From positions 13,450-77,449 of the forward strand of contig JAAYBJ010000003.1 in NCBI GenBank assembly GCA_012730105.1: a DNA stretch of 64,000 nucleotides. Reading direction: 5' to 3'. Of this stretch, positions 4,463 to 48,689 are shown piece by piece. The first letter of the stretch is position 1. Each line of letters opens with the position of its first letter. The notes beneath the pieces were generated by a model. That model had not been told where the DNA came from. It saw only the letters and a program-made list of their open reading frames with translations, and searched no databases. This DNA comes from Candidatus Hydrogenedentota bacterium. GTDB lineage: Bacteria > Hydrogenedentota > Hydrogenedentia > Hydrogenedentales > CAITNO01. A program made the translations under genes and the position numbers.

Positions 4463-6182
4463 TGAAAGGGTCACCTGAGAGGCTGTTTTCGATATCGGTC
4501 ATCAGTCCAGGCTCCAGCCCCAGCGCCTGCTGAAAATAGACCGTTGCCCGGCCGACTTCGCCCAGGGCCAGCATGGCCTTGCCTGTTTCACAGGCCGCAA
4601 GCGCGGCCACCTGCTTCCAGCCTTCCAGTTTGGACAGGCCGATCAGGGGGGCGTAGACGTTCACTGCCGCTTCATATTCCTGAAGGCGCATCAATACCCT
4701 GCCCAACGACATCCGCGCCTCAATTTCATCCTGCGGGGCCGCGAGGGCCCCTTCCGGGTCTTTCGCACGGTGGCGCGCCTGGATATCCAGATAACGCTCA
4801 TAATGCCGCCGGGCCCCCGCGTAATTGTTTTCCAGATCCTCGTAGGTGACGGCGAGATTGTAATGAACACGAGCGCTTTCCGGATTCTCGCGGAGTGTTG
4901 CCCGAAACAGGGTGACATTGTCCCGCCAGTCCAGGTTTCTCCGGGCGGTCATGCCGATAAAAACCAGGCAGAGTACAGCCACCGCCGTCCAGGCCAGACG
5001 CCTCGCGCGCCCGCGCCCGCAAAGAGAGTGAATCATTTCCGCCAGGGCCCACCAGAAGCCTGCCATGGGCACATACATCCAATGTTCGGCCATGGGGGCA
5101 TTCAACGGGAAAACGCCGGAAATGGGCAGCCAGGCCACCAGGAACCAGGCACAGCCCGCGGCAATGCGCTTATTACCCCGGCGCCAGTAAAACATAATGG
5201 CCCCAAGCATTACAACGAGAAACGCCACGCCCAGCAGCACGTACGCCCCGGAGACATCGTCCAGGACCCGTTCCATATGCAGGCCCGTGGGCACGAAAAG
5301 CAGTTTCAGGTAGAGCCCCAAGGCCTGGGCCGCCTCGAACAGACGTTGCGTAACAGGCGCGGCGGCAGATCCCCCCCCCTCGGAGAAACGAAGCACGGTC
5401 GCACGCAGCGCCAGGTAGACGACAAGCATAGCTCCGGCGAGGACCGCCGGCGCGGCCGTTCTGAGCCGGGAGGGCCTGTTCCCTTCATTGCCCGCCTGGT
5501 CCCGCATTACCGGCAGCATCAGGAGAAGCAGAAAGGGATAGATGAGGGTGGACTCCTTGCTCAACAGCCCCGCTGCGAAACATGCCGCGGCGGCCGACAA
5601 GGGGAACGCGGGCCTTTCAGAACGCAAGGCGCGGTATGAAAAATACAGGGCGGCGAAAATCGCCATGCCTGACATCATGTCGGCCCGCCCGCTGATGTAG
5701 GCCACCGCTTCCGTATGCAGGGGATGCACGACGAAAATCAACGGGGCCGCGAGGCGGACGAAAGCCGGGGCGGCAAGACGGTGCAGCATCAGGGCGAACA
5801 GAAGGGCCGCCGCCAGGTGCAGGAGCATGTTCGTCAAATGAAAGGGGAAAGTGGGGATTTCCGGTCCCTTGGGATTTTCTTCGGCCTCCGGCCCCGGACC
5901 GCCCGAAAGCCAATAGTCCGCCATGAAAGACACGGACACCAGTGGCCGGTAAAAATTGCCCTCTCCCCTGCCGAAAGCGTGCTGGTCCTCCCGGAACAGT
6001 TGAAAGAACTTTCCGGGGTCGCGCACATGTTTGTGGAGGAGAACAGAGGAGGCATCATCCCACACCCACTCCCCCCGGAAGGTGTTGGCGTAAGCCAAAA
6101 CACATGCGAGCGCCAACAGCAATGCCACCGTCCACAGAAAGGCATGCGAGTCAGGCCTATTGTCCGTACGTTGCGGATACAT
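4449..6182 (-). CDS. TMTC/PMT-like multi-pass membrane protein with C-terminal TPR repeats (putative glycosyltransferase family 39-like)
   Basis: The N-terminus YANTFRGEWVWDDASSV is the hallmark of TMTC/DUF1736-type mannosyltransferase-like proteins. Roughly 10 predicted TM helices are followed by TPR-like repeats. The likely start is M at 6182 (MYPQR), not the upstream 6278. Confidence 0.65.
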   Translation of the reverse strand: MYPQRTDNRPDSHAFLWTVALLLALACVLAYANTFRGEWVWDDASSVLLHKHVRDPGKFFQLFREDQHAFGRGEGNFYRPLVSVSFMADYWLSGGPGPEAEENPKGPEIPTFPFHLTNMLLHLAAALLFALMLHRLAAPAFVRLAAPLIFVVHPLHTEAVAYISGRADMMSGMAIFAALYFSYRALRSERPAFPLSAAAACFAAGLLSKESTLIYPFLLLLMLPVMRDQAGNEGNRPSRLRTAAPAVLAGAMLVVYLALRATVLRFSEGGGSAAAPVTQRLFEAAQALGLYLKLLFVPTGLHMERVLDDVSGAYVLLGVAFLVVMLGAIMFYWRRGNKRIAAGCAWFLVAWLPISGVFPLNAPMAEHWMYVPMAGFWWALAEMIHSLCGRGRARRLAWTAVAVLCLVFIGMTARRNLDWRDNVTLFRATLRENPESARVHYNLAVTYEDLENNYAGARRHYERYLDIQARHRAKDPEGALAAPQDEIEARMSLGRVLMRLQEYEAAVNVYAPLIGLSKLEGWKQVAALAACETGKAMLALGEVGRATVYFQQALGLEPGLMTDIENSLSGDPFNDFY

Positions 6183-6335: not shown

Positions 6336-7022
6336 TTATATTTTGCGATCCGGGCCAAGCACGTCGCGTTTCTTGGGGCCGATGCAGATCCAGGAATAAC
6401 TCAGGGGCAGGTATTCCACTTCGATGGACTGCTGGTTCCCGATAATTTTCACGAGGCGCAACACCTTGTGAAATTCCTCGCCTTCACGGACACGGTAGGC
6501 GGTCGTCACCCCATCGGTGGGATCAAAAAGATCGATAAAAACATAGAGTTCGTTGTCGAGCTCCATGAAGCCCGTCACGGTCAACACAGGCCGTTTCACC
6601 ATCAGGTCGGCATATTCCCGGGTCTTTTCAAACCGGGTATTATCCGGTTGGAACACCAAGTAGGCCCGGCACAGCGCCGACAGTTTGCGCCAGCGTTCTT
6701 CTTCCCGGGCCACCTTGATGGACTCTTCTATATCGCGGGTAACCATGCCCAGGGCGGCGCGGCCATTTTCGGTCGCGCCCAACTGCGTCTTGCGCGCCTG
6801 CAATTGGTTGAGAATATCCGGTATCAACACATCATCCTGGGCGGGAATACCAGACATCAGCATTTCCCCCATGATGCTCCGCAACTGCTGGTGGTACTCT
6901 TCAGGAGTGGGTTCGGGCGGCGGCGCCGGCTGGGGCGGCGGGGGCGGGGGTTCCGGCTTGCAGGCCGCCACAAGAAACAGCGCGAGACACAATACTACGG
7001 CAAGTGCGATTTTTCTTTTCAT
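6336..7022 (-). CDS. Lipoprotein with Pro-rich linker (hypothetical)
   Basis: MKRKIALAVVLCLALFLVAAC lipobox, followed by a PEPPPPPPQPAPPPEPTPEE linker. GGAAGAA RBS upstream of the ATG at 7022. The 5' extension to 7355 in the ORF track is unlikely to be real. Confidence 0.6.
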   Translation of the reverse strand: MKRKIALAVVLCLALFLVAACKPEPPPPPPQPAPPPEPTPEEYHQQLRSIMGEMLMSGIPAQDDVLIPDILNQLQARKTQLGATENGRAALGMVTRDIEESIKVAREEERWRKLSALCRAYLVFQPDNTRFEKTREYADLMVKRPVLTVTGFMELDNELYVFIDLFDPTDGVTTAYRVREGEEFHKVLRLVKIIGNQQSIEVEYLPLSYSWICIGPKKRDVLGPDRKI

Positions 7023-7245
7023 GGTTTCTTCCTTCTTGAAAGTACCGGCACAGTGTACCATATTCCTCCGCCGGGCACAAAAGCAAGACGCAAAGCTGAC
7101 GCAAAGCAAGACGCAATACCCGGGTCGCCGGACAAAATATTCTGTATCTGATGAACGCCGGCGATCAAGGCGTCTACCTGGACAGCGCTCGTGCATAGGA
7201 CAAAGGGGAGAGTAAGGTCCTGGTTCATTTGCGCTATTCCCAAAA

Positions 7246-7483
7246 CAACGCGTCATTCCGGTTTTTCGCGATGAAGAAGGGATCCGTATCGAAGGGTGTG
7301 GCCAGGCCGCGAAAAGACCGGAATCTATCATAAAAGCCATCAGCAGGAATAACATAGACTGCTGACCTACGAGACGAAGATTCTCTCCTTAAGTGACTTA
7401 ATCTGGATTCCGGTCTTTTTCGCGTTATCCGGCGGCGTTCTTTGATACAAGGCACAGGTCGCGAAAAAACCGGAATGACGTTT
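7246..7483. mobile_element. R1 MITE-like element, copy 1 (~240 bp, terminal inverted repeats CGTCATTCCGGTTTTTCGCG, two internal hairpin units)
   Basis: The left unit (7246-7330) and right unit (7400-7483) are reverse complements of each other. A near-identical element lies at 16535..16777. Confidence 0.55.
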
Positions 7484-7625
7484 GTTGAGGTTCTTTTAAA
7501 CTAAAAATGAAGTTCTTTAATACGGGGCTTGTTCCCGCTCTTTCCTTATTTCACCCTGTCGGTGCGGTCCGGATGTTCAGATGGATCTCTTCCCCCCCCA
7601 TTACGTTGATTCCATTTGCCAACAA

Positions 7626-7750
7626 GATTTCATCCTAAAAACGGCTGTTAACGCAGGGAAAACCTCTTAAAAGAAAGGACCCAAAGGACCAAAAAGACTT
7701 AAAGGAAACACTATGCAGGAAAGCGTTTTACAGTCCTTTTTTTTCTCTGG
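7626..7750. repeat. R2 palindromic repeat, copy a (TCATCCTAAAAACGGCTGTTAACGC...AAAGGACCCAAAGGAC...GTCCTTTTTT)
   Basis: Shares about 50 bp of near-identity, in reverse orientation, with 16925..17045 and 23886..24003. A partial end copy lies at 16381..16405. Confidence 0.5.
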
Positions 7751-15236: not shown

Positions 15237-16211
15237 ATGAAAATCGTGATTACCCGCCGTATACCCGAGGCGGGGGTTGAAACGCTTGTCCACGCATTCG
15301 GCACGGAACAGGTCCGACGGCATGAGGAAGAACGACCCATGACACGGGCCGTACTTCTTGATGCCCTCCGGGGCGCGACGGCCGTGCTTTGCACCATTAC
15401 GGAGAAGATGGACGCGGAGGCCATGGACGCCGCAGGCGACCAGTTGAAAATCATCGCGAATATGGCCGTCGGTTATGACAATATTAACCTGGCCGATGCT
15501 GCGGCGCGGAATATTTTGGTAACCAATACGCCCGGCGTCCTGACGGAAGCCACGGCGGACCTGGCTTGGGCGCTGATCCTGGGCGCGGCGCGCCGTACAG
15601 GCGAAGCGGAACGCTGCCTGCGCGCCGGGTTGTGGGAAGGCTGGGGACCGCTCCAGTTCCTGGGCGCGTCGGTGCACGGCAAAACGCTGGGCATTTTCGG
15701 CATGGGCCGCATCGGCCGCGCTGTGGCGCGTCGCGCCCTCGGTTTTGACATGCCCGTCCTCTACTGCGACACAAACCGCCTCGATGCTGAAACGGAGCGG
15801 CAGCTGCATGCCCGGCTCGTTGACAAAGACACTTTGCTTCGCGAATCGGATATCCTGACCCTGCACTGCCCCCTAACCCCGGAAACGCGCCACGCCTTCA
15901 CCCTGCGGGAATTCAAACAGATGAAACGTGGCGCCCTGATCGTCAACACTTCCCGGGGCCCCGTAATCAAAGAGGAGGACTTGTCCGCCGCGCTACGGGA
16001 AGACCTGATTTTCGCCGCAGGCCTCGACGTGTATGAACACGAACCCGCCGTGCACGCAGCACTGCTGAAACAAGAACAGGCCGTGCTGCTGCCGCACCTG
16101 GGCAGCGCCACCGTGGAAACGCGCGCCACCATGGCGCGCATGGCGGCGGAAAATATCGTCGCCGCCCTGTCCGGCAGTGAACCGCCGAACCGGGTCCTCC
16201 TCCCTTCGTGA
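15237..16211 (+). CDS. D-isomer-specific 2-hydroxyacid dehydrogenase (glyoxylate/hydroxypyruvate reductase family)
   Basis: NAD-binding GIFGMGRIGRAVARRA. Overall architecture typical of GhrB/glycerate dehydrogenase-like enzymes, with catalytic R/E/H spacing. Confidence 0.9.
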   Translation: MKIVITRRIPEAGVETLVHAFGTEQVRRHEEERPMTRAVLLDALRGATAVLCTITEKMDAEAMDAAGDQLKIIANMAVGYDNINLADAAARNILVTNTPGVLTEATADLAWALILGAARRTGEAERCLRAGLWEGWGPLQFLGASVHGKTLGIFGMGRIGRAVARRALGFDMPVLYCDTNRLDAETERQLHARLVDKDTLLRESDILTLHCPLTPETRHAFTLREFKQMKRGALIVNTSRGPVIKEEDLSAALREDLIFAAGLDVYEHEPAVHAALLKQEQAVLLPHLGSATVETRATMARMAAENIVAALSGSEPPNRVLLPS

Positions 16212-16245
16212 TCCTAATACGGGCGCTGCCCACAACCCAACGCCC

Positions 16246-16385
16246 CATCGTATTCGTGCTCGTAACTCGTATTCGTAATCGGAAAAAACAGAACAGAGAT
16301 TCGATTACGAAGCACGAGTACGAAGCACGAGTACGAAGCACGAGTACGAAGCACGAGTACGAAGCACGAGTACGAAGCACGATTC
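16246..16385. repeat. 13-bp tandem repeat array (CGAAGCACGAGTA x about 5.7, 16308-16383) preceded by a degenerate inverted copy (16246-16285), forming a potential long hairpin
   Basis: Direct reading of the sequence; lies 35 bp after the stop of the dehydrogenase gene. Confidence 0.75.
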
Positions 16386-16534
16386 ATCCTAAAAACGGCC
16401 GTTGGATTCAGAAGTGGTTTTCAAACCAAGGCGCTTAGGGTCATTTCGCTGACAATTAATTATGAGTTCTGCTTTAAGTATAGGTAACCAAGAAGAGTGT
16501 CATGTTTTGATTTGTCTCAAAGACCCAAAAACAA

Positions 16535-16777
16535 CGCGTCATTCCGGTTTTTCGCGGTGGGAAAAAGAAATGTATCGAAGAGTGTGCCAAGCCGCGAAAA
16601 GACCGGAATCTATCTTTGGAAGCCGCGCATGAGGAACAGCCCGTGTCGGATTTATTTTTTAAGATGGGAAATGGGCATTCATTGCGGTGCGACGAATCTG
16701 GATTCCGGTCTTTTTCGCGTTGTACAGTACCGTTCTTCGATCCGAGCCAGAGATCGCGAAAAAACCGGAATGACGCG
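16535..16777. mobile_element. R1 MITE-like element, copy 2
   Basis: Same TIRs (CGCGTCATTCCGGTTTTTCGCG / CGCGAAAAAACCGGAATGACGCG) and same internal unit sequences as 7246..7483. The centre is variable. Confidence 0.55.
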
Positions 16778-16924
16778 ACTTGGGGTTGTTTATAATAAAA
16801 AGCGAAGTGCGTTGATGCGGGCGTTTTTATTCACCTTTTTTTTCGTATGTAGTGTTGACTTTTGCTGCGCCAAGGGCGTCACTTCTTCCGGGCGAAGTCC
16901 CGGACGAAGCGTAGGGACTTGAAG

Positions 16925-17045
16925 GATATAAAGGACGAAAAGGACTGTAAACCGCTCTCCTGATTAGTATGTCCTTTACGCCTCTTAAGTCCTTTCGGTC
17001 CTTTCTTTTAAGAGGCTTTCCTGGCATTAACTGCCGTTTATGGGT
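16925..17045. repeat. R2 palindromic repeat, copy b (reverse orientation)
   Basis: AAAGGACGAAAAGGAC...GTCCTTTCGGTCCTTTCTTTTAAGAGGCTTTCCTGGCATTAACTGCCGTTT matches the other copies. Confidence 0.5.
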
Positions 17046-17396
17046 TCATAACACGCGTGCTCATACGTGAGACCAAGCAGTATGAACAGGAGTGAACACC
17101 ATGGCTGACTTCATTATTTTTTGTCGATTACAAGCCGATAAAGCTCTTTTATACATTTCATTATCCGGCAAAAGTGCCGGATAATTCCTATTCAGAGAAC
17201 CACTGTCAAACGCTTTGCGCCGGTGTCAGTTGAGGATTACCCCTGTTTCATGGATGTGAATCGACGGGTATGTTTTTTTGACATCGCGGCGCCAGCGCGT
17301 GTACACTTCCCGCAACCGGATGTCAGGTTCCGGTACAGGCTACGCCGCAGACTGCTGAAAACAGCGGCACATTCACCCTACGACCCCGGCCGTTAA

Positions 17397-18758
<1,362 letters not shown>

Positions 18759-18848: not shown

Positions 18849-18896
18849 GCCCGCAAAGTAGGGACAGTTCCTCATGACACTTTGCGTTCCCCAGAA

Positions 18897-18976
18897 ACGA
18901 TGAAAATGTAGACGCGGCGTCCCCGCCGCGTTATAAAAGCGGCTGGGAAGCCGCTTCTACATTCATTGATTACAAC
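18897..18976. repeat. R3 double-palindrome element, copy 2, abutting the GTG start of the next gene
   Basis: AACGATGAAAATGTAGACGCGGCGTCCCCGCCGCGTTATAAAAGCGGCTGGGAAGCCGCTTCTACATTCATTGATTACA. The stems are conserved relative to copy 1 while the loops differ. Confidence 0.6.
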
Positions 18977-21658
18977 GTGTTATTTGAAATTTTCAGGGCA
19001 GACCAAAGGAACCACACTGTGGTCAAAAAGACGGATTTAAGCACAGGCCTCCAGGAACTGGATCAGCTGCTGCGCGGTTTGATCTCGGGGGACAACCTGG
19101 TCTGGCGCGTGGATCACGTCGAGGATTACGCGGTTTTCGCGCGGCCGTACTGCGCGTTCGGGCTGGCATCGGGGCGGCCGGTAGTCTACCTGCGCTACGC
19201 AAACCATCCACCGATCCTGACGCCGGACGACTTTTCCGGCAATGTCAAGATTTACGATCTCGACCCGCGCATCGGGTTCGAACCTTTTCTTGACGCCGTC
19301 CACGACGCCATTGAAGAGACGCCCCGGGACGCCTACTATGTCTTTGATTCGCTGTCCAGCCTGGCGGAAACCTGGTACAGCGACCAGATGCTCTGCAATT
19401 TTTTCATGCTTACCTGCCCCTACCTGTACGACCGGGGGGACATCGCTTATTTCGCGCTGATGCGCGACCTGCATTCGAACGAGGCGGTCATGCCCATCCG
19501 AGACACGGCGCAGGTCATGGTGGACGTGCACCGGCACGAAGGCGAGCTGTACCTGCGCCCATTGAAAACCCAGCAGCGCTTCTCGCCGACCATGCACATG
19601 ATGCATCATTGGAGCGGCCGCTCGTTTCAGCCCATCTCAGAGAGTTACACCATCGCCGGGGTGCTGCACACTGCCCCGCCCTCGGCGGTCGGTTGCGCGG
19701 TGCGCCCGTTGGACGCCTGGAACAAGACCTTCCTGCAGGCACAGGATCTCCTGCTCGGCCCCGAGGAGGCGAGGAATAGCGAATACGCGGGGCTGCTCTT
19801 CGAGCGCCTGCTGCGCATGGTCATCTCCAGGGACGCGCGCATCCTGGAGCTGGCGCGGGAATATCTCACGCTGGACGACATGCTCGACATCGGGCGGCGG
19901 GTCATCGGGACCGGCATGATCGGCGGCAAGGCGGTCGGCATGCTCCTGGCCCAGGCCATTCTGAAACGGCATGCGCCGGAGCGGTGGCGCGGGCTTCTTG
20001 AAGGTCATGACAGTTTCTATATCGGCGCGGACGTCTTCTACACCTTTTTAGTGCGCAACGGTTGCTGGTGGATCCGGCGCCGTCAAAAAACGGCCAGCGA
20101 TTTCCTGGAGGGCGCCCAGCAGATCCGGCGGCGCATCATCACGGGGGTGTTCCCCCGCGAGGCCGAGGACGAACTGGCGCGCATGCTGGATTATTTCGGG
20201 TGCTCCCCCATCATTGTGCGTTCCAGTTCCCTGCTGGAAGACAATTTCGGCAACGCCTTCGCCGGTAAGTATGAGAGCGTGTTTTGTCCGAACCAGGGCT
20301 CCTTCCAGCAACGCCTGGAAGACTTCAAGTCGGCCGTGCGCACCGTTTACGCCAGCGCGATGAGCGAAGACGCCCTGGCCTACCGCAAGTGCCACGGTCT
20401 GCTGGACAAGGAAGAACAGATGGGCCTGCTCGTGCAGCGCGTTTCGGGCGTGCAGCGGGCGGACCTGTTCTTTCCGGACGCGGCGGGCGTCGCCTTTTCC
20501 TACAACCCCTACGTCTGGCACGAGGACATCGACCCCGAGGCCGGTATCGTGCGCCTGGTGTTCGGCCTGGGCACCCGCGCCGTAAACCGCGCCGACGACG
20601 ACTACACGCGCATCATCGCGCTTAACGCTCCCCTGCAGACCCCGGAGAGCGGACGTGCGGCAGGGCGGAAATATTATCAGCACAAGGTGGACGTGCTGGA
20701 CCTCGGCGCCAACCACCTGACCACGATGGATTTCGGCCAGGTACTTAAACGCATAGAAAACGGGCAGTGCACCTCCTGGCGCCTCGTGTCCATGCGCGAC
20801 CAGGAACTGGAACGGAGAAACCGGCAGGGAGAGCGGCAGAGCGCCTCGCCCCTGTTCATCAATTTCGACCGGTTCCTGAAGGAAACCCATTTCGTCGAGG
20901 ACATGCGCAACGGGCTGGAAATTATCCAGAAGGCCTACCGGTACCCGGTGGACGTGGAGTTTACCCTGAATTTCGCCGCCGAGAAAGAATACCGCATCAA
21001 CATCGTCCAGTGCAGGCCCCTGCAGGTGAAAGGGAACGCCCGGGCGGAGGCCCTGCCCGACAATATCCCGGAGGACCGGATACTGCTGCGCTCCTCAGGG
21101 CCCGTGATCGGCCAGACGCGGTCGGACGTGGTGGACCGTTTTATCTTTGTCAACCCGGAAACCTACGGGCAACTGCCCGTGCAGGAGCGCCACCGCATCG
21201 CGCGCCTTATCGGGCAGTTGACCCACTGCGATGCCGTCTGCCAGCATCCCCAAGTAATGCTGCTCGGACCGGGACGCTGGGGCACATCCACACCTTCGCT
21301 GGGCGTGCCGGTGAATTTCGCCGAGATCGAGAACGTGTCGGTCCTGTGTGAAATTGTGGCCATGCGCGAAGACCTGGTGCCCGACGTGTCCATGGGCACG
21401 CACTTTTTCAGCGAGCTGGTGGAGATGGAGATGCTTTATCTGACCCTGTTTCCGGACAAGGCGGACTCGGTGCTCGCGTCCCGGTTCTTCCTGGAAGCGC
21501 CCAACCACCTCGCGGAGGCGCTGCCGGGCGCAGAGCCCTATGCGGATGTGGTGCGGCTGCTGCACCTGGACGATATCGCCCCCGGCGCCCGGGCGCGGCT
21601 TTACGCCGATTCGATGAAGCAGCAGACGCTGTGCTTTATCGAACCGGCCTCCAAGTAA
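18977..21658 (+). CDS. Large (893-aa) protein: unknown N-terminal ~300-aa domain fused to a PEP-synthase/PPDK N-terminal-like ATP-binding (ATP-grasp) kinase domain
   Basis: GGKAVGMLLAQ and IIVRSSSLLEDNFGNAFAGKYESV resemble the nucleotide-binding motifs of pyruvate,water dikinase / rifampin phosphotransferase N-domains. There is no His swivel domain. GTG start, with no ATG for about 138 codons. Confidence 0.75.
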   Translation: MLFEIFRADQRNHTVVKKTDLSTGLQELDQLLRGLISGDNLVWRVDHVEDYAVFARPYCAFGLASGRPVVYLRYANHPPILTPDDFSGNVKIYDLDPRIGFEPFLDAVHDAIEETPRDAYYVFDSLSSLAETWYSDQMLCNFFMLTCPYLYDRGDIAYFALMRDLHSNEAVMPIRDTAQVMVDVHRHEGELYLRPLKTQQRFSPTMHMMHHWSGRSFQPISESYTIAGVLHTAPPSAVGCAVRPLDAWNKTFLQAQDLLLGPEEARNSEYAGLLFERLLRMVISRDARILELAREYLTLDDMLDIGRRVIGTGMIGGKAVGMLLAQAILKRHAPERWRGLLEGHDSFYIGADVFYTFLVRNGCWWIRRRQKTASDFLEGAQQIRRRIITGVFPREAEDELARMLDYFGCSPIIVRSSSLLEDNFGNAFAGKYESVFCPNQGSFQQRLEDFKSAVRTVYASAMSEDALAYRKCHGLLDKEEQMGLLVQRVSGVQRADLFFPDAAGVAFSYNPYVWHEDIDPEAGIVRLVFGLGTRAVNRADDDYTRIIALNAPLQTPESGRAAGRKYYQHKVDVLDLGANHLTTMDFGQVLKRIENGQCTSWRLVSMRDQELERRNRQGERQSASPLFINFDRFLKETHFVEDMRNGLEIIQKAYRYPVDVEFTLNFAAEKEYRINIVQCRPLQVKGNARAEALPDNIPEDRILLRSSGPVIGQTRSDVVDRFIFVNPETYGQLPVQERHRIARLIGQLTHCDAVCQHPQVMLLGPGRWGTSTPSLGVPVNFAEIENVSVLCEIVAMREDLVPDVSMGTHFFSELVEMEMLYLTLFPDKADSVLASRFFLEAPNHLAEALPGAEPYADVVRLLHLDDIAPGARARLYADSMKQQTLCFIEPASK

Positions 21659-23885: not shown

Positions 23886-24003
23886 CAAAGGACATAAATG
23901 ACCAAAAGGACAGTAGAACATTCTCCCGGTTGGTGCGTCCTTGACGTCCTTTCGGTCCTTTTTTTTAAGAGATTTTCCCGGCGTTAACAGCCGTTTTTTT
24001 TTG
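23886..24003. repeat. R2 palindromic repeat, copy c
   Basis: CCAAAGGACATAAATGACCAAAAGGAC...GTCCTTTCGGTCCTTTTTTTTAAGAGATTTTCCCGGCGTTAACAGCCGTTTTT. Confidence 0.5.
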
Positions 24004-39718: not shown

Positions 39719-39857
39719 CACTCGCGTGGGATCCGGAAATCCCGGTTCGTCCCGCCACTTGTGGGCCCTGTTTTTTGTATGGTACAGTGAGGCTGCCGAT
39801 TTCACGTTGGTCCTGCGCAAAGACGGGGCCGGTGTTCCTGGCGATAAAGGTGCCCAG

Positions 39858-42197
39858 ATGAAATCCCAACTGATTCCTTCTCTGCTTCTGGCAATACTTG
39901 CGGCGGCATGTCCCTCTATGGGCACGGCGGATGACCAGCCTGAAAACCGGCCGGACGCCCGGCACCACCAGCGCCTGGTGGAAGACGACTGGCAGCTGCA
40001 GGAAGCGCGTCAGGGCCGGAACGCGGGAAGCCTGGAGGCGGTGCGCGCCGCCATGGTCAGGGCGGAAGCCCTGTACCAGGATCTTTCCGGGGTTGCCGGG
40101 ATGGAAGACTGCCGGGAACAAATGGAACTGTTCGCCCGACAAGTGGGCCGCGCCGAAGCCATGGAAGACAGCGAACGCCTGGCGCTTTATTACGCCCTGC
40201 GCTGGTTCACCCGCGAACTGGCGTTGCAGAATCCGCTGATCGCCGACACACCCCTGGTGTTCATGCAACGGCGCCGTTTCATCTGCCAGATGCTGCATGA
40301 ATATCTCGGCTATTATTATGATTACGGGGATATTGAAGGGGGCGGTGTCTTCATCCTCGAACAGCCCGGCAAGTCCTTTGCCGCGCGCGAACTGGTCCGC
40401 GGACGACTGCCACGGGGCAATTACACTACCCTGGCGCTTTCTTATGACGCAAAAACCATCCACTTTGCATTCGCGCCCCGCGCACCCGGGGAAAAACCGG
40501 ATTTCTATTCCGGTGAACGCCGCTGTTTTCATTTGTACAGCATGGACAGCGACGGAAACAACCTGCGGCCGCTGACGGAAGGACCTGACGACGATTTTGA
40601 TCCCTGCCCGCTGCCGGACGGCGGCATCGCGTTCATGTCCACCCGACGGGGCGGTTTCACGCGCTGCAACAACCCCTGGGAACCGCTGCCCGCCCACACG
40701 CTGCACCGGCTGGACCCGGACGGCGCAGTCCGTTGCCTGTCTTATCATGAGACCAGCGAGTGGCATCCGCAGGTGCTCCATGACGGGCGGATCGCCTACA
40801 TCCGATGGGACTATGTGGACCGTTCGGCGGCGCATTTCCACGGCATCTGGGCCACCAACCCCGACGGGACCGAAACGCGCCAGATTTTCGGCAATTATAC
40901 GCAACGGATCAACGCCTGTTATCAGCCGCATCCCGTGCCGGGTTCCCGCCGTCTGGCCTTTCTTGCCGGGGCCCATCACGCCAATGTCGGAGGATCACTT
41001 GTACTATTCGACCCCGCCAAAGCCGCCTTCGACCCCGCGACCGGGGAAGACGATTTCGGTTCCCTTGAACCGTTAACGCCGGAGGTATGTTTCGCGGAGA
41101 CGCCGGACGTGTGGCCTGAATCCTATTTTCACAGCCCCTGGCCGCTTTCAGAAGGCTATTTCCTCATCAGTTTCTCTTTTGATCCCCTGCCAGGCATGAG
41201 CGCCCGTACGAAAGAAGACACCGAAACGGGCATCTATCTGTGGGACCGGTTTGGAAACCTGGAACTCCTGTACCGTGAGCCCGGCATCTCCTGCATGTAT
41301 CCACTCCCCTTGAAACCACGGCCGATACCGCCCGCGCTGCCAAGCCGGCTTGATCCAACACTGGGCGATTCAGGAGAGTTTTATCTCGCCAATGTGTATG
41401 AAAGCCATTTACCATTCCCTAAAGACCGGCCGATCCACGGCTTGCATATTTATCAACTCCTGCCCAAAAGTGAAACGCATGTGGCCAACCAGCCGCGTAT
41501 CGGGTATGCCAATGCGGAATCCGCCCGGATGCTGCTGGGTTTCGTGCCGGTCGAAAAGGATGGTTCCGCCCGTTTCAAGGCGCCCGCCGGGAAACCGCTC
41601 GCCTTTCAGGCCGTGGATGAATCCGGCCGAGCGGTGCAGGGTATGCGCAGCGCCGTGTACCTGCAGCCGGGCGAACGCCGGAGTTGTGTGGGCTGCCATG
41701 AATCTCCGGAACGATCCGGAACTGTTCCCTTAGGAAAACAGATCGCCTTCGGCCGCGGGCCTTCCGAGATTACGCCCGGCCCGGACGGCGTCATGCCGTG
41801 GAGTTTTCCCAGGCTGGTGCAACCGATTCTGGACACGCACTGCGTCCGCTGCCATGGCGAAGCGGGCAATGCAAGACCATGCCTTGAGGCGAAGGTACAG
41901 GACGAATTTACTGAGGCTTACACCGTGCTGAAACCTTACGCGCGCTGGTACGAATGGGGCGGGGAAAGCATCAGCATAATTGTAACCCGTCCGGGCGAAA
42001 TGCCCGCCGACGTGAGTCCATTGACCGCCATACTGAATGATGCCAATCACGCGTCCGAACTGCGCCTGCCCGAGGCCGCGCAGCGAATCCTGTACTTGTG
42101 GCTGGACGGTAACGCGGCGTTTTACGGAACCTACTCGCCGACCGAGCGGCTCGCCCAGTTTGAAGGCAGTAAGGTGCCGCCTCCCGCGCTGCAGTGA
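39858..42197 (+). CDS. Secreted beta-propeller protein with C-terminal Planctomycete-type cytochrome c (PSCyt1-like) region, double CXXCH
   Basis: Signal peptide MKSQLIPSLLLAILAAAC. TolB/HzsA-like propeller segments. CVGCHESP and FPRLVQPILDTHCVRCHGEAGN, the latter matching the PSCyt1 consensus (V/I)xPILxxxCxxCHG. Confidence 0.8.
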   Translation: MKSQLIPSLLLAILAAACPSMGTADDQPENRPDARHHQRLVEDDWQLQEARQGRNAGSLEAVRAAMVRAEALYQDLSGVAGMEDCREQMELFARQVGRAEAMEDSERLALYYALRWFTRELALQNPLIADTPLVFMQRRRFICQMLHEYLGYYYDYGDIEGGGVFILEQPGKSFAARELVRGRLPRGNYTTLALSYDAKTIHFAFAPRAPGEKPDFYSGERRCFHLYSMDSDGNNLRPLTEGPDDDFDPCPLPDGGIAFMSTRRGGFTRCNNPWEPLPAHTLHRLDPDGAVRCLSYHETSEWHPQVLHDGRIAYIRWDYVDRSAAHFHGIWATNPDGTETRQIFGNYTQRINACYQPHPVPGSRRLAFLAGAHHANVGGSLVLFDPAKAAFDPATGEDDFGSLEPLTPEVCFAETPDVWPESYFHSPWPLSEGYFLISFSFDPLPGMSARTKEDTETGIYLWDRFGNLELLYREPGISCMYPLPLKPRPIPPALPSRLDPTLGDSGEFYLANVYESHLPFPKDRPIHGLHIYQLLPKSETHVANQPRIGYANAESARMLLGFVPVEKDGSARFKAPAGKPLAFQAVDESGRAVQGMRSAVYLQPGERRSCVGCHESPERSGTVPLGKQIAFGRGPSEITPGPDGVMPWSFPRLVQPILDTHCVRCHGEAGNARPCLEAKVQDEFTEAYTVLKPYARWYEWGGESISIIVTRPGEMPADVSPLTAILNDANHASELRLPEAAQRILYLWLDGNAAFYGTYSPTERLAQFEGSKVPPPALQ

Positions 42198-43131: not shown

Positions 43132-44943
43132 ATGATGAAGAAAAATGTGTTTATCTGCGTGTTGATTCTGGCGATTACAGGTCCGGCCTTTGCCGTGCAT
43201 ACCCCGGTACCGGATATGGATTCCTGTCCACCAACAGTGGACGAATACGGCACACCCATCAACTGGAACTTTGTTCCGCTGCCCCTGTTCAATATCAATG
43301 TGCTTGGCAGTACTGTAAATTTTACACCCATTGCCGGACAAGTGGACTTCTGTGCCTATACGGACATCATCTTTTGTTCCCTGGGACCTGTGGGGGATTT
43401 GGTACCTGAGGTAATGGCTTTTGCCAACCTGGTGCAATGCAACGGATTTAAACGGATTTACGAATGGACCTGTCCCTGCACAAGTACGGTACAAACAGGC
43501 GTGGTGCCGGACGGTGAATGTGTCACTTATGTTGAAGGAGAGACTTCGGAAGGGGAGATCGCATGTCAGCAAGAGTGGGTGCGGGGCAGTCTGGTCGAAA
43601 GTATCCCCGTGCACATGGATATCAATGGTCCTATTGACTTACAGGCGGAACTGCCAGTCACCGGCAACGGCATTCCGGACGGCCAGTATGAGCTTGGAAT
43701 TCTTGCGGCCATTTACAATGACGATACCCATCCCCTGCATGCAACCGTGGTTGCCGCCTATCAGGCGAACTATAAGGCGGTCAAAGATTTAATTGTGGAT
43801 GCCCTTGCCGCCGCGAATTTAAAAAATGACAAAGACCTTCGCCCGATTGTACAATCCGTCGCGCCCTATCTGGTAAGGGCTTTAAGCTCGATTCTGGCCG
43901 GCTTTGCCACTATGGCTGATCCCCAAACTAATATGGCGCTCGACCAGTTGCTTTTGCTGCTGGCGGAAATTGGTATTGCCCCGCCCGAGGGCGGCATAGC
44001 CGGGATTGCGACAGGTATTCCCGAACTGGGGCCGGAAGGCGACGCGGACGGCGGCGGCGCCACCAACCGTCAGGAGTATGAATACTTTGTAACAGTACTC
44101 GGCTATGGTCCGGCCGAGTACGTGGCCGCCGCTCTTGATCCCGCACAGGAACCGCCCGTGGAGAATGAAGGCGAAACTGAAACAGAAGGCGAAGGCGAAG
44201 CGGTGCCTGAAGGGGAAGGCGAAATCGTCGCCGAAGGTGAAGTGTCGTCCGAAGGCGAGGGCGAAGGGATGAGTGAAGGCGAAGCCCCATACGAAGGTGA
44301 ACCCTCCGGGGAAGGCGAGTTTGAATCTGAAGGCGAGATACCGGCCGAAGGGGAAATCGTTGTAGAAGGCGAGGGTGAAGCCGCTGCTGAAGGTGAAATC
44401 GTTGACGAAGGCGAGGGTGAAGCCGCTGCTGAAGGCGAAATCATTGAAGAAGGCGAGGGTGAAGCCGCTGCTGAAGGCGAAATCGTTGAAGAAGGCGAGG
44501 GTGAAACCGCTGCTGAAGGCGAAATCATTGAAGAAGGCGAGGGTGAAGCCGCTGCTGAAGGCGAAATCGTTGAAGAAGGCGAGGGCGAAGCGCCTGCAGA
44601 AGGTGAAGGCGAAGCGCCTGCAGAAGGTGAAGGCGAAGCGCCTTCAGAAGGTGAGGGTGAAATCGTTGCCGAAGGAGAAGGAGAAGCACTTGCAGAAGGA
44701 GAAGGTGAAGTCATTGCCGAAGGAGAAGGAGAAGCACTTGCAGAAGGAGAAGGTGAAGTCATTGCCGAAGGCGAAGGAGAAGCACCTGCAGAAGGTGAAG
44801 GCGAAGACGAGACTTCCAGCTGCTGCGGCACCTCTGGGAAAGACATGAACATCAGGAAACTCATGGACCGCACCATCGGTGATTGGTTATTAATCGGCAT
44901 GAGTCTGTTGGGATTGACGGCATTCTCCCTTGTCCGTAAATAA
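43132..44943 (+). CDS. Secreted acidic-repeat protein A: signal peptide, ~320-aa unique domain, ~215 aa of EGEGExxA-type tandem repeats, Cys-rich/GDWLLIG C-terminal anchor module
   Basis: Perfect GAAGGAGG RBS. Signal peptide [20 protein letters not shown]. Repeats run from about residue 340. C-terminus [42 protein letters not shown]. Confidence 0.85.
44160..44810 (+). repeat. Coding tandem repeats (24-bp basic period, 42-bp super-period) encoding [12 protein letters not shown](V/I)(E/D) units
   Basis: Direct reading. Generates frame-artefact ORFs on both strands (SPSPS... and KAKSLKK...). Confidence 0.8.
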
Positions 44944-45440: not shown

Positions 45441-48400
45441 ATGAAAAAGATACTGGTAAGTGTTTTGGGTCTTGCGATCTGCCTGCTGCCGATGGCGGTA
45501 TTTGCCGCTCCCGGTGATGTGCCCATGCCGGATACGGTCCTGGAGGCTGCCGTTGAAGCGGAAATCGGCGATGACGGGGTCAGCGGCGCTGTGGACAGCA
45601 CCCTGCTGCTGAACCTCGTCCAATTGGGCGGGCTCGATGATTTTCCCAACCAACTGGTCACCGGCGTAACGGACTTAACGGGGCTGGAAGCGGCAACAAA
45701 TCTCGAGTTTTTGCTGTTGTTAAACGGTGATATCGACAGTCTGGAACCAGTTGCGGATTTGCCCGCCTTAACCGGCCTGGCCCTGTTCGATATGGGCGTT
45801 GAGGACGCCGATGTGGCGGAACTTGCCGCCGGAACCGCTGAACCTGTTGCGTTACTGATTTCAAACCTGGGAACAGGAACTCCGAACGACCTGACCACCA
45901 CGGGTATTAATAGTATTGGTCAGATCGGCAGTATTGTGGAACTGTCTCTGTCGGGCTTGGGAAATGAATTTGACATCTCAGGTTTAAGCACCTTGTCGCT
46001 GGGGGATTTGGGTTTTGGTCTTGGACTGTCCATGGACGGCAATACCATTGTGGACGGGTTTGAAGTTATCGCCGGGTTTACAGGCCTGACGGCGCTTTCA
46101 CTTGGCCAAACAGGCATTACCAGTGCAGACTTGGACCTCGTTGACTGGTCCCTGATGACCAGCCTGGGGGAATTGCTGCTGCCCTTCAATGCCATTACGG
46201 ATATTTCCATGTTGCTGGATCTCGGAGCTCCGTCCGGCGCAATTATAGACCTTGCCGGCAACCCCCTTGATAATGCCGCTGTATGTACGCATATCCCCGC
46301 GTTAGTAACTGCCGGTTATACCGTTTTGGATGGCCAGGTTCTCCCCTGTGGTTCCCCAGTACTTACCCTGACTCTGAACGGTGTAGGCGAAATCAATCCC
46401 GCGCCAGGTGAGTACCGCTATGAGGTCGGTACGGAAGTGTTTCTAAATGCCAACCAGATCAGCGGCGGTGGTGTTTTTTCCCATTGGACTGGTGACGTGG
46501 CGGATCCTAGCAACCCGAACACCAGCATCGTCATGAATGCAGACGAGGCTGTGGAGGCGGTGTTTGTGGATGGCGACTATACATTGACGATCCAGTACGC
46601 CGGGGACGGAACGGGCGTTACCTCTCCCCCGGCAGGCGTATGGGCCTATCAGGACGGGGCTTCCGTTGGCTTGAATTTTACCCCCGACCCGGGCAATTTC
46701 TGGGGCGGCTGGCAGGGGGATCTTACGGGCATTATCGCCAATACGATCATCATGGACAGCGACAAAACGGTTACGGCCGTATTCGGCGCCACAGGTTATG
46801 ATTTGATCATCGGCGTAAATGATACAGATCTGGGCTTTACCTTTCCGGTGATGGGCACGTATCCCCTTGCAACGGGAACCGTGGTGGATATCAACGCGAT
46901 TGTGGACTTCTCCGAGCCAACCTATATTTTCGGTGAATGGACCGGTGATATCGGCACGGCCGATCCTGCCAACCCAGAACTGCAGGTCACCATGGACCAG
47001 GCGCGTACCGTCACCGCCAACTTCAGAAAACCTGAGTTAACCATCAGCATCACTGGGGAAGGGACAACGAATCCCGTACCGGGAGTATATCCGTATGACA
47101 ACGGCGCCTTTGCCGCTGTGACTGCGACACCCGCCGATGGATGGTTTTTCGTCGGTTGGCAAGGTGATGCGGAAGGGGCAGGTGAATTAAATATTTTGAT
47201 GGACGGCGACAAGGCGGTAACAGCGGTATTCGAACAGATTCCCGTCTATACGCTGACCATTAATGCCGCTGATGGTGGTTCCACTAATCCGCCAGCGGGA
47301 AGTTATCCCTATGATGAAGGTGCCGTTGTGGAAATAACTGCCACACCGGAGACAGGATGGCAATTCCTTCGCTGGGAGGGCGACGTTACCAGTACCGACC
47401 CCTCCACTTTGGTTAATATGGATGGCGATAAAACAGTAACGCCCGTTTTTGAAATTTTATCCTACGATGTCACCATTAATGTTGTAGGCAATGGAACGAC
47501 CTTGCCTGCCGCAGGTACCTCTCCATGGGATTACGGGTCGGTAGTGATGATCACGGCCACTCCTGCAACTGGATGGCAATTTGTACGCTGGGAAGGCGAC
47601 TTTTCTGTTCCGAATCCGGAAGTGCCCAACTTCGCTGAAGTAGAAGTGGACGGTCCGAAAACCGTAACCGCGGTGTTCGAACAGATTACCTATACACTGA
47701 CTATTTCAGTGGCAGGCGATGGCACTACAGATCCCCCTACAGGCGGGGTTTACACTTCAGGTACGCCTGTAACGATTACAGCCCAGCCTGCGGATGGTTG
47801 GAACTTTGCCAGATGGGAAGGGGATGTTTCCGGTACGGAATCCACACTATCGTTCACTATGGATAGCGACATATCCGTTACGGCGGTCTTTGAAGAGCAA
47901 ATAATTGAAGGCGAGGGTGAAACCCCTGTTGAAGGCGAAGGCGAAGCCCCTGTTGAGGGTGAAGGTGAAGAACCCATTGAAGGCGAAGGCGAAGAGCCCG
48001 TCGAAGGCGAAGGTGAAGAACCCGTCGAAGGCGAAGGCGAAGAGCCCGTCGAAGGCGAAGGTGAAGAACCCGTCGAAGGCGAAGGTGAAGAACCCGTCGA
48101 AGGCGAAGGTGAAGAACCTGTCGAAGGCGAAGGCGAAGAACCTGTCGAAGGCGAAGGCGAAGAACCTGTCGAAGGCGAAGGTGAAGAACCTGTCGAAGGC
48201 GAAGGTGAAGAACCTGTCGAAGGCGAAGGTGAAGAACCTGTCGAAGGCGAAGGTGAAGAACCTGTCGAAGGTGAAGGTGAAGCCCCTGTCGAAGGCGAAG
48301 GTGAAGAACCTGTCGAAGGCGAAGGTGAAGAACCTGTCGAAGGTGAAGGTGAAGCCCCTGTCGAAGGTGAAGGCGAAGAGCCTGTCGAAGGCGAAGGCGA

Positions 48401-48689
48401 AGAACCTGTCGAAGGCGAAGGTGAAGCCCCCGTTGAGGGCGAAGGTGAAGTAACCGCCGAAGGCGAGGGCGAAGAACCTGTCGAAGGTGAAGGCGAAGAG
48501 CCTGTCGAAGGCGAGGGTGAAACCCCCGTTGAGGGCGAAGGCGAGGGCGAAGAAGAAGCCTGCGGTTGCTGCCAGCAGAATGAAAAAGCCCTTACCATAA
48601 AAGAAATGGTAGAAAAGAGTTTGGGCGACTGGCTGTTAATCGGCGTAAGCCTTCTTGGACTTACGGCTTTGGCCGGTATGCGCAAATAA
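45441..48689 (+). CDS. Secreted acidic-repeat protein B, internalin-like: signal peptide, leucine-rich repeats, about 8 InlB-B-repeat (Listeria-Bacteroides repeat)-type domains, about 27 copies of EGEGEEPV, Cys-rich/GDWLLIG C-terminal anchor
   Basis: AAAGGGA RBS. Signal peptide [25 protein letters not shown]-like LxxLxxLxLxxNxI segments. Repeated YTLTIxxxGxGTxxPxxGxYxYxxGxxVxLxAxPxxGWxFxxWxGD modules. C-terminus [43 protein letters not shown]. Confidence 0.85.
47905..48555 (+). repeat. Near-perfect 24-bp coding tandem repeats (GAAGGCGAAGGTGAAGAACCTGTC x about 27) encoding EGEGEEPV
   Basis: Direct reading. Copies differ mostly at synonymous third positions (gag/gaa, ccc/cct, gtc/gtt). Confidence 0.85.

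Follow-up and report, generated by a model that had tools for sequence, protein, structure and literature searches.

The palindromic element of about 240 bp that occurs twice in a 64,000-nucleotide stretch of the Candidatus Hydrogenedentota contig JAAYBJ010000003.1 (positions 13,450 to 77,449; hereafter, the window) appears to be one part of a larger mobile unit. We suggest that it is the palindromic core, designated P, of a non-coding, non-autonomous insertion element (the cassette) of ~484 bp, that the ends of this cassette are common to a 1.8-kb unit with an open reading frame (ORF) of 553 amino acids (aa) and to a shorter cassette with an unrelated core, designated Q, and that the 553-aa protein is the mobiliser. 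We place the probability of this reading at about 0.65. Coordinates follow the numbering of the window unless a locus (L0xx) is named. An earlier interpretation (the sequence-only reading) had described the element as similar to a miniature inverted-repeat transposable element (MITE), with 22-bp terminal inverted repeats (TIRs). Its observation was right, and so in kind was its notion of a non-autonomous mobile element family; its boundaries, its TIRs, and the target-site duplication (TSD) that it expected are wrong.

Both copies lie where they had been placed, copy 1 at 7249-7481 and copy 2 at 16535-16777. Each consists of two hairpins of ~70 nt, inverted to each other around a variable centre of 82-92 nt:

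7255-7324 (+), hairpin A of copy 1
7325-7406 (+), centre of copy 1
7407-7476 (+), hairpin B of copy 1
16541-16609 (+), hairpin A of copy 2, with arms ATTCCGGTTTTTCGCG / CGCGAAAAGACCGGAAT and a 37-nt loop
16610-16701 (+), variable centre of copy 2, the most divergent sequence, of nearly constant length in most copies
16702-16771 (+), hairpin B of copy 2, with arms ATTCCGGTCTTTTTCGCG / CGCGAAAAAACCGGAAT

Hairpin A of copy 2 has a local folding energy of -26.6 kcal/mol, and hairpin B of the same copy is a diverged reverse complement of it; the analysis of the arms bears out the earlier description of each half as a long hairpin, with the right half approximately the reverse complement of the left. 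A GACG extension on the outer arms yields perfect outer inverted repeats, 100% complementary over 16 nt in copy 1 (7251-7266 / 7465-7480) and over 18 nt in copy 2 (16535-16552 / 16760-16777), and the inner arms also form perfect inverted repeats, of 14 nt. The repeats taken for TIRs are thus real and flank the core, but they are internal to the moving unit and not its termini. Equally, the copies end only approximately with the reverse complement of the 22-mer quoted for their beginning, since the T-run is off by one base at the right ends and copy 1 reads GACGT there, not GACGCG. The arm motif has nine matches in the window at three mismatches or fewer, versus 1.06 expected (none of 100 shuffles reached nine), and the strong matches are the eight arms, all of them. 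By BLAST, the two copies are ~72% identical over ~300 bp (7239-7526 on the side of copy 1), and the 81% "mean column identity" between them is a per-column average. Their similarity runs past the borders given earlier, and the loops differ as well, contrary to the claim that only the ~70-bp centre does.

Aligned copies remain conserved outside the core, for ~105 nt on its left side and ~130 nt on its right, with sharp limits at GCGCTTAGGG (left) and GAAGCRTAG (right). The cassette so delimited consists, in order, of a left end of ~40 nt, a spacer, hairpin A, the centre, hairpin B, a second spacer, and a right end of ~50 nt. In the window it is represented as follows:

16431-16914 (+), copy 2, a complete ~484-bp non-autonomous cassette, by nhmmer profile match, exact end motifs, and junctions
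16431-16470 (+), cassette left end, corresponding to the 3' non-coding end of the 1.8-kb element (past its stop codon)
16865-16914 (+), cassette right end, corresponding to the 5' non-coding end of the 1.8-kb element, on the other strand
7200-7543 (+), copy 1, a decayed cassette, with core and inner spacers present and both ends unrecognisable

Using nhmmer with a profile of the ~470-nt unit built from copies in metagenome-assembled genomes (MAGs), we obtained a match to copy 2 at 16423-16885 (profile positions 12-470). The end motifs of this copy were matched exactly (left, 16431-16455; right, 16882-16910), and its junctions, AAG/GCGCTTAGGG and GAAGCGTAG/GGACTTG (here and below, the slash in a junction marks the boundary), conform to the junction profile of the family. 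For copy 1, the match is limited to profile positions 67-419, and both ends have therefore been lost; neither left-end nor right-end motifs were found near it. Judged from these sequence features, copy 2 is intact and potentially mobile, and copy 1 is a decayed relic. The termini of the cassette (GCGCTTAGGGCCATTTCGCTGACAA... and ...CCCGGACGAAGCRTAG) are asymmetric and are not inverted repeats of each other. Counted by eye, the left end (16431-16470) agrees at ~38 of 40 positions with the 1.8-kb unit and the Q and P cassettes, and the right end (16865-16914) at ~46 of 50 with the 1.8-kb unit. The right end comprises two small hairpins (CTTCTTCCGGG-CGAAGT-CCCGGACGAAG and a stem of the GCGCC..GGCGC type) and a terminal GTAG (RTAG in the family).

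A scan of metagenomes with the tandem-junction sequence returned 30 loci. The 1.8-kb unit was found at four metagenome loci, and its left end (~40 nt) and right end (~48 nt) are those of the cassettes. The four units are 98.6%-99.4% identical to one another, each is located beside P cassettes, and each contains a single intact ORF of 553 aa on the opposite strand. The likeness between cassette and unit stops at the stop codon of the ORF on one side, and past the two small hairpins on the other. The 1.8-kb unit has no TIRs: instead of the insertion sequence (IS) with matching TIRs that had been suggested as a target for searches, the putative autonomous partner is an element that shares the asymmetric ends of the cassette.

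Searches with the 553-aa protein gave no match in Pfam, NCBIfam, PHROGs, or any PDB sequence, one marginal match in PADLOC (E = 0.04), and fold matches limited to a C-terminal winged helix. No DDE, DEDD, HUH, tyrosine-recombinase, or serine-recombinase signature was detectable in it. From a possible Rep_trans-like motif (KIYSKGERVLRIE) we make no claim. Invariant residues of the protein include D20, D23, H147, H155, C161, H163, H175, E258, Y339, K341, E343, E349, and H353. Its homologues number at least 5974; nearly all are of ~550 aa, none has a Pfam domain, and most reside on contigs of 1.8-2.5 kb, as expected for a repeated element. One of them, 44.6% identical and labeled hypothetical protein in RefSeq, is on a plasmid of Mycobacterium riyadhense. 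We observed a common architecture of the ends in seven members with 44%-63% protein identity, including the M. riyadhense plasmid copy. In the orientation of the ORF, the element starts at a flank of the form YAAG NNN / CTAMGC, followed by a hairpin of 10-13 bp with an ACTTCG-like loop and by a second hairpin before the ORF, closed in five of the seven by a TTCG loop (cUUCGg-type); after the ORF, the flank reads TAAG SGC / CTA. Across these seven distant members, compensatory changes are present in nine of the 18 predicted pairs of the two-hairpin end. An ORF and ends that co-evolve and remain linked in different phyla are what characterises an autonomous insertion element. We propose that the 553-aa protein may be a transposase or recombinase, which would mobilise P and Q in trans via the structured end and the terminal sequences.

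The M. riyadhense plasmid presents further features of its own. At locus L096 (NZ_OY970457.1 142153-146184), a 17-nt tandem duplication (AGCGACCAAGGGTCG[G/C]T) precedes the element, and two right-end-like repeats follow it in tandem. With tblastn, the 553-aa protein matches five places in this plasmid, all annotated as hypothetical.

The junctions of the cassettes (41 left and 59 right in our profile) indicate a sequence-specific target. The left flank is W-A-G in 38-39 of the 41, and on the right the terminal RTAG is followed by three variable bases and then C-T-T in 50-55 of the 59. The resulting target, WAG^NNNCTTR, is similar to the joined-ends junction of the element itself (GAAGCRTAG/GCGCTTA), which would explain the occurrence of cassettes in head-to-tail arrays and their nesting in other palindromic repeats. 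In every cassette with both junctions, the four left bases differ from the right RTAG, so that there is no TSD, and the element therefore behaves as one with conservative or single-strand insertion, not as a DDE element. The TSD that had been expected was searched for and none was found, the unit that moves being the ~484-bp cassette with its asymmetric ends. A TSD of 4 bp (ATAG) fits one nested insertion, at L043, alone, and is ruled out by every other cassette with both junctions. Insertion would thus occur specifically at WAG^NNNCTTR and leave no duplication, by a chemistry that may be conservative and site-specific, or a single-strand "cut after a motif", rather than DDE transposition.

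Individual loci illustrate the process. At L043, a Q cassette in reversed orientation is split by a P cassette, and the removal of positions 6356-6621 rebuilds an intact Q with no gap and no duplication. A second nested insertion was observed at L050, with a P cassette in the loop of another repeat. At an orthologous site, a P cassette in one MAG corresponds to a Q cassette in the other, with the same ends. The core of the Q cassette is a ~90-nt palindrome unrelated to P, with two inverted sub-hairpins (GCCGCCATCCTTGGCGGC and ATCCCTGCCGGCAGGGAT). Q cassettes, of ~200 bp and with the ends of the P cassette, are located at:

L029 2042-2242, Q cassette
L021 4057-4258 (-), Q cassette
L052 2079-2279 (-), Q cassette

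L029 carries three units head to tail, joined as GAAGCRT AG/GCGCTTA, the first of which has the Q core. In such arrays, which comprise no more than three cassettes and lie on short contigs, the right end and the next left end together form an imperfect palindrome, with the junction in its 3' arm. This invites an explanation by integron-like cassettes, in which that palindrome would be an attC-like site for a separate tyrosine recombinase, and the 553-aa ORF mere cargo. Several features are alike. The outer stem of the palindrome, AGGCGCC/GGCGCTT, is separated by a 1x4 internal loop from an inner stem of 11 bp, which has one mismatch and is capped by a 6-nt loop. As in attC, the crossover point falls within the 3' outer arm, and the family shares with integron cassettes the constant site ends with exchangeable cargo, the head-to-tail arrays, and a target that resembles the junction. 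However, the AAC/GTT core triplets and the RYYYAAC/GTTRRRY boxes are missing, the cargo consists of non-coding palindromes, and most cassettes are single and dispersed between housekeeping genes. Among 28 ORFs scanned in the window there was no transposase or integrase (IntI included), and no integrase gene was noticed in the loci, where ORFs beside arrays were not scanned. Moreover, the linkage of the 553-aa ORF to the same end architecture at 44%-63% identity in distant phyla is expected of an autonomous element and not of cargo. We consider the integron-like explanation very unlikely, and favor mobilisation by the 553-aa protein.

Synteny between near-identical or 95%-identical genomes switches exactly at cassettes (L054 6772-7415 versus window 16211-17418; L018 versus L028 and L041). 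In L054, for instance, a 2-hydroxyacid dehydrogenase gene and the cassette are followed by a different gene where the window has glutamate dehydrogenase. These switches reflect either recombination between cassette copies or assembly chimeras.

We quantified the spread of the core by scanning one genome per species with the hairpin pattern, which gave at least 53 loci, many of them at contig ends. Among the matches listed, 44 of 53 loci belong to two Candidatus Hydrogenedentota MAGs (UR.bin34 and RA.bin58), three to MAGs that are probably related or mis-binned, and six are unrelated palindromes. Relaxed matching over all the DNA that we retrieved identified 38 full cores, as well as 47 hairpins that occur singly. 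In every full copy, hairpin B starts 148-162 nt after the start of hairpin A; the centre is ~15 nt shorter in copy 1 of the window and in a divergent subfamily, described below. Cores of the window type were present on at least 10 further metagenome loci, and copies also in digester metagenomes; a scan of viral contigs gave zero matches. The single-hairpin forms retain both outer flanks (at least 12 with loop A and three with loop B), and look like deletions between directly repeated arms. All copies are intergenic, as had been said of the two in the window. The suggestion that these two arose by local segmental duplication, or are palindromic by chance, has in its favor that the 64-kb window has no other P core, but it is already refuted: dozens of copies with unrelated surroundings lie in two or more other genomes and on many metagenome contigs, and the flanks of the window copies are unrelated to each other outside the element.

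The element also coincides with breaks in assemblies. Contigs from eight samples bear the genes that flank it in the window and break in the element when compared for empty sites: the four that were aligned to the window stop inside it or at its edge. For the glutamate dehydrogenase gene downstream, we retrieved eight contigs, each of which stops less than 1 kb upstream of it.

Within the core, the hairpin arms show about one-sixth of the diversity of the loops, centre, and flanks (0.04-0.065 in the arms versus 0.26-0.34 in loops and centre, with 0.34 in the centre), and they are 96%-99% paired across 36 copies. The minimum-energy fold of the whole core is one long rod (z about -6). As the conserved structure, this rod was rejected: it shows no compensatory change and is broken by variants that preserve the local hairpins. 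For the model of local hairpins, two pairs show compensatory change (six cells), and none of 500 shuffles reaches its covariation score. In the divergent subfamily, both arms of hairpin B have changed together, from ATTCCGG..CCGGAAT to ATGCCGG..CCGGCAT, a double change that preserves the local hairpin and breaks the rod. As far as can be read from sequence variation, two local hairpins rather than one rod are the favored conserved structure. The core may then be a structure-forming cargo, which would extrude as hairpins or a cruciform in single-stranded DNA or RNA.

A group II intron is found next to these hairpins at two loci: in L031 (2463-4384), it begins 1-2 nt past the foot of hairpin A, and in L072 (from ~2184) the same intron lies 1-2 nt past the foot of hairpin B, in both cases oriented from the left end of the cassette towards its right end. 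It contains an ORF for a 456-aa reverse transcriptase/maturase, its domain V matches RF00029 (E = 2e-10), and its 5' end reads GTGCG. Class C group II introns target stem-loops, in a manner like that of the intron in L031 and L072.

The conservation of the arms raises the question of whether the core is kept for a function in the host (for instance as an array of four protein-binding sites, as a cruciform, or as a structured RNA with an effect on genes nearby), its spread by a carrier being secondary. The low diversity of the arms holds even between lineages with different loops and centre, compensatory change maintains hairpin B, the spacing of the hairpins is nearly constant, and the homing of the intron to the foot of either hairpin indicates that these are recognisable structures in vivo. 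Against this, the context of 27 classifiable copies shows no clear bias in orientation or neighborhood (11 tandem on the same strand, five tandem on the opposite strand, seven divergent, and four convergent). Rfam 15 has no match at the gathering threshold in the window, and only sub-threshold, hairpin-like matches on a cassette array with E up to 1. The element contains no sigma-70-like promoter or intrinsic-terminator consensus, and the promoter and terminator totals for the two intergenic regions are not clearly above shuffled expectation. Deletion forms with a single hairpin are frequent and decayed copies occur, which suggests that selection on any one copy is weak, and the arms could be homogenised by recombination among four near-identical repeats. 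A host function as the reason for the conservation of the core is, in our judgment, unlikely. We also rejected a protein-coding role. The consensus has a Shine-Dalgarno-like sequence with an ATG and a 97-codon frame; 1-nt indels shift the frame in approximately half of the copies, and variability shows no excess at third positions (0.086/0.104/0.108 at codon positions 1/2/3). The same flat profile and indels agree with the earlier dismissal of the ORFs that cross the element as spurious.

The divergent subfamily just mentioned (subfamily 2) has its P-like core, with hairpin B arms ATGCCGG..CCGGCAT, inside a different repeat of ~520 bp that has a CCACCGGCAGAGCCGGTGG hairpin at both boundaries. 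It was found at:

L020 ~500-1000, subfamily 2
L046, subfamily 2
L049, subfamily 2
L081, subfamily 2
L022 ~5500-5900, subfamily 2

Since the core occurs in a different carrier, it may be a module with some independence. One could go further and regard the 240-bp core as an independent MITE of the TIR type, residing in different carriers and moved by a classical transposase that recognises TIRs of 16-22 bp. Beyond the P-like core (arms ATTCCGG/ATGCCGG) in this second carrier, two observations fit such an origin: the inverted-repeat likeness reaches ~8-14 nt past the arms in both carriers, and copy 1 has a core with cassette ends that are unrecognisable. Yet neither carrier has a TSD beside the core, cores in unique sequence, free of carrier flanks, were not encountered, and the same spacers accompany the core in every cassette-type copy, with copy 1 retaining them (profile positions 67-419). 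In addition, no IS with matching TIRs turned up in the ~0.5 Mb of retrieved loci. We therefore see an independent TIR-type element as rather unlikely, and continue to regard the core as part of the ~484-bp cassette.

Several observations weigh against the model of a P cassette mobilised by the 553-aa protein. The occurrence of a P-like core in a second carrier with other ends is one, and the very few independent events that make up the compensatory evidence for the core are another. The 1.8-kb unit adjoins cassettes of the MAG type and not of the window type, and none was found in the window. In the comparison of close strains, no clean pair of a filled and an empty site was found (L020 and L021 are too diverged). 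Finally, MAG and metagenome assemblies are possibly chimeric at repeats.

We compared the cassette family with known mobile elements. Like MITEs (e.g., the Correia elements of Neisseria), the cassettes are short, non-coding, multi-copy, and intergenic, have ends common to a longer protein-coding element, fold into long hairpins, and coincide with assembly breaks; unlike MITEs, they have ends that are not inverted repeats, no TSD, inverted repeats in an internal position, and sequence-specific insertion. With the palindrome-associated transposable elements (PATEs) and the REPINs, composed of repetitive extragenic palindromes (REPs), which are relatives of IS200/IS605 and of the Y1 proteins of the RAYT family, they share the lack of TIRs and TSD, insertion just 3' of a motif resembling their own 3' terminus, an essential-looking subterminal hairpin, and palindromic content. 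They differ in that the conserved structured end of the cassette is one-sided and the target needs NNNCTTR 3' of the insertion point. Furthermore, the 553-aa protein matches neither Y1_Tnp nor any HUH model, including the IS200/IS605 models of Pfam and NCBIfam, and no Y1/RAYT gene was found among the proteins scanned with Y1_Tnp. The hairpins are also longer than those of REPs and REPINs (~70 nt, with 17-nt arms starting with ATTCCGG, versus 20-40 nt) and have no GTAG head. The MITE/REP-type classification of the sequence-only reading accordingly stands for a multi-copy, non-coding family of mobile origin, and fails for a REP-like size and motif.

IS110/IS1111 elements are comparable in their lack of TIRs and TSD, in site-specific insertion that is often into palindromic repeats, in a core shared by target and junction, and in a structured non-coding end upstream of the ORF, which here has two covarying hairpins; with respect to a bridge or seeker RNA, the comparison extends to these hairpins only. 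Unlike them, the 553-aa protein gave no match to DEDD_Tnp_IS110 (PF01548), Transposase_20 (PF02371), or NCBIfam IS110 models, in searches with E up to 1 for the protein itself and up to 10 for 44 members. The IS110/IS1111 family is not known for numerous non-autonomous derivatives. We found no published description of the repeat or of the protein family in the literature, ISfinder being outside this comparison. Tentatively, we raise the possibility that the 553-aa family, with its one-sided two-hairpin end, is an uncatalogued class of site-specific insertion elements extending from Hydrogenedentota to Mycobacterium, which would recognise the structured end as single-stranded DNA or RNA and have the P and Q cassettes as non-autonomous passengers.

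Other repeats are found close to the cassettes. The R2 repeat family (TTCATCCTAAAAACGGCNGTT...AAAGGACCNAAAGGAC...) adjoins both window copies, in agreement with the earlier statement that each is followed by an R2 element:

7629-7740 (+), R2 repeat, after copy 1
16922-17045 (-), R2 repeat, after copy 2
23888-23998 (-), R2 repeat

Copy 2 is bracketed by a 21-nt R2 head (16383-16403) and the inverted R2 at 16922-17045. In L022 and L023, an R2-like sequence (AAGAAAGGACCGAAAGGACTTAAG) abuts the left end of the cassette directly, so that R2 possibly provides target sites. A 13-nt tandem repeat (GTACGAAGCACGA) at 16300-16382, immediately before copy 2, has ~6 units in the window and L056, and three in L054 and L057, a copy-number polymorphism among otherwise near-identical metagenome contigs.

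Elsewhere in the window, a pair of intergenic repeats of ~95 bp (1651-1743 and 18884-18980) is 82% identical and unrelated to the P element. The ORFs at 43132-44943 and 45441-48689 contain internal tandem repeats with a period of ~72 nt (at 44149-44810 and 47891-48554), have no Pfam match, and probably encode repeat-domain surface proteins. An 823-aa ORF (39726-42197) matches the middle domain of the hydrazine synthase alpha subunit (PF18582, E = 7e-22), which is unexpected outside anammox bacteria.

In this genome, the element marks intergenic regions that break assemblies, and the cassettes may mediate rearrangements between close strains. The near-invariant four-arm core could serve the element or the host. 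Tracing the repeat outward from the window brought to light an element family of great abundance (at least 5974 homologues), annotated as hypothetical and with no catalytic domain found by our searches; the insertion-element family that owns the asymmetric ends of the cassette is apparently unannotated and uncatalogued. If the 553-aa protein is indeed a recombinase, the short and definable target WAG^NNNCTTR together with a compact structured end would represent a new mechanism of site-specific DNA insertion, and the cassettes would be a natural source of small non-autonomous substrates with which to test it.
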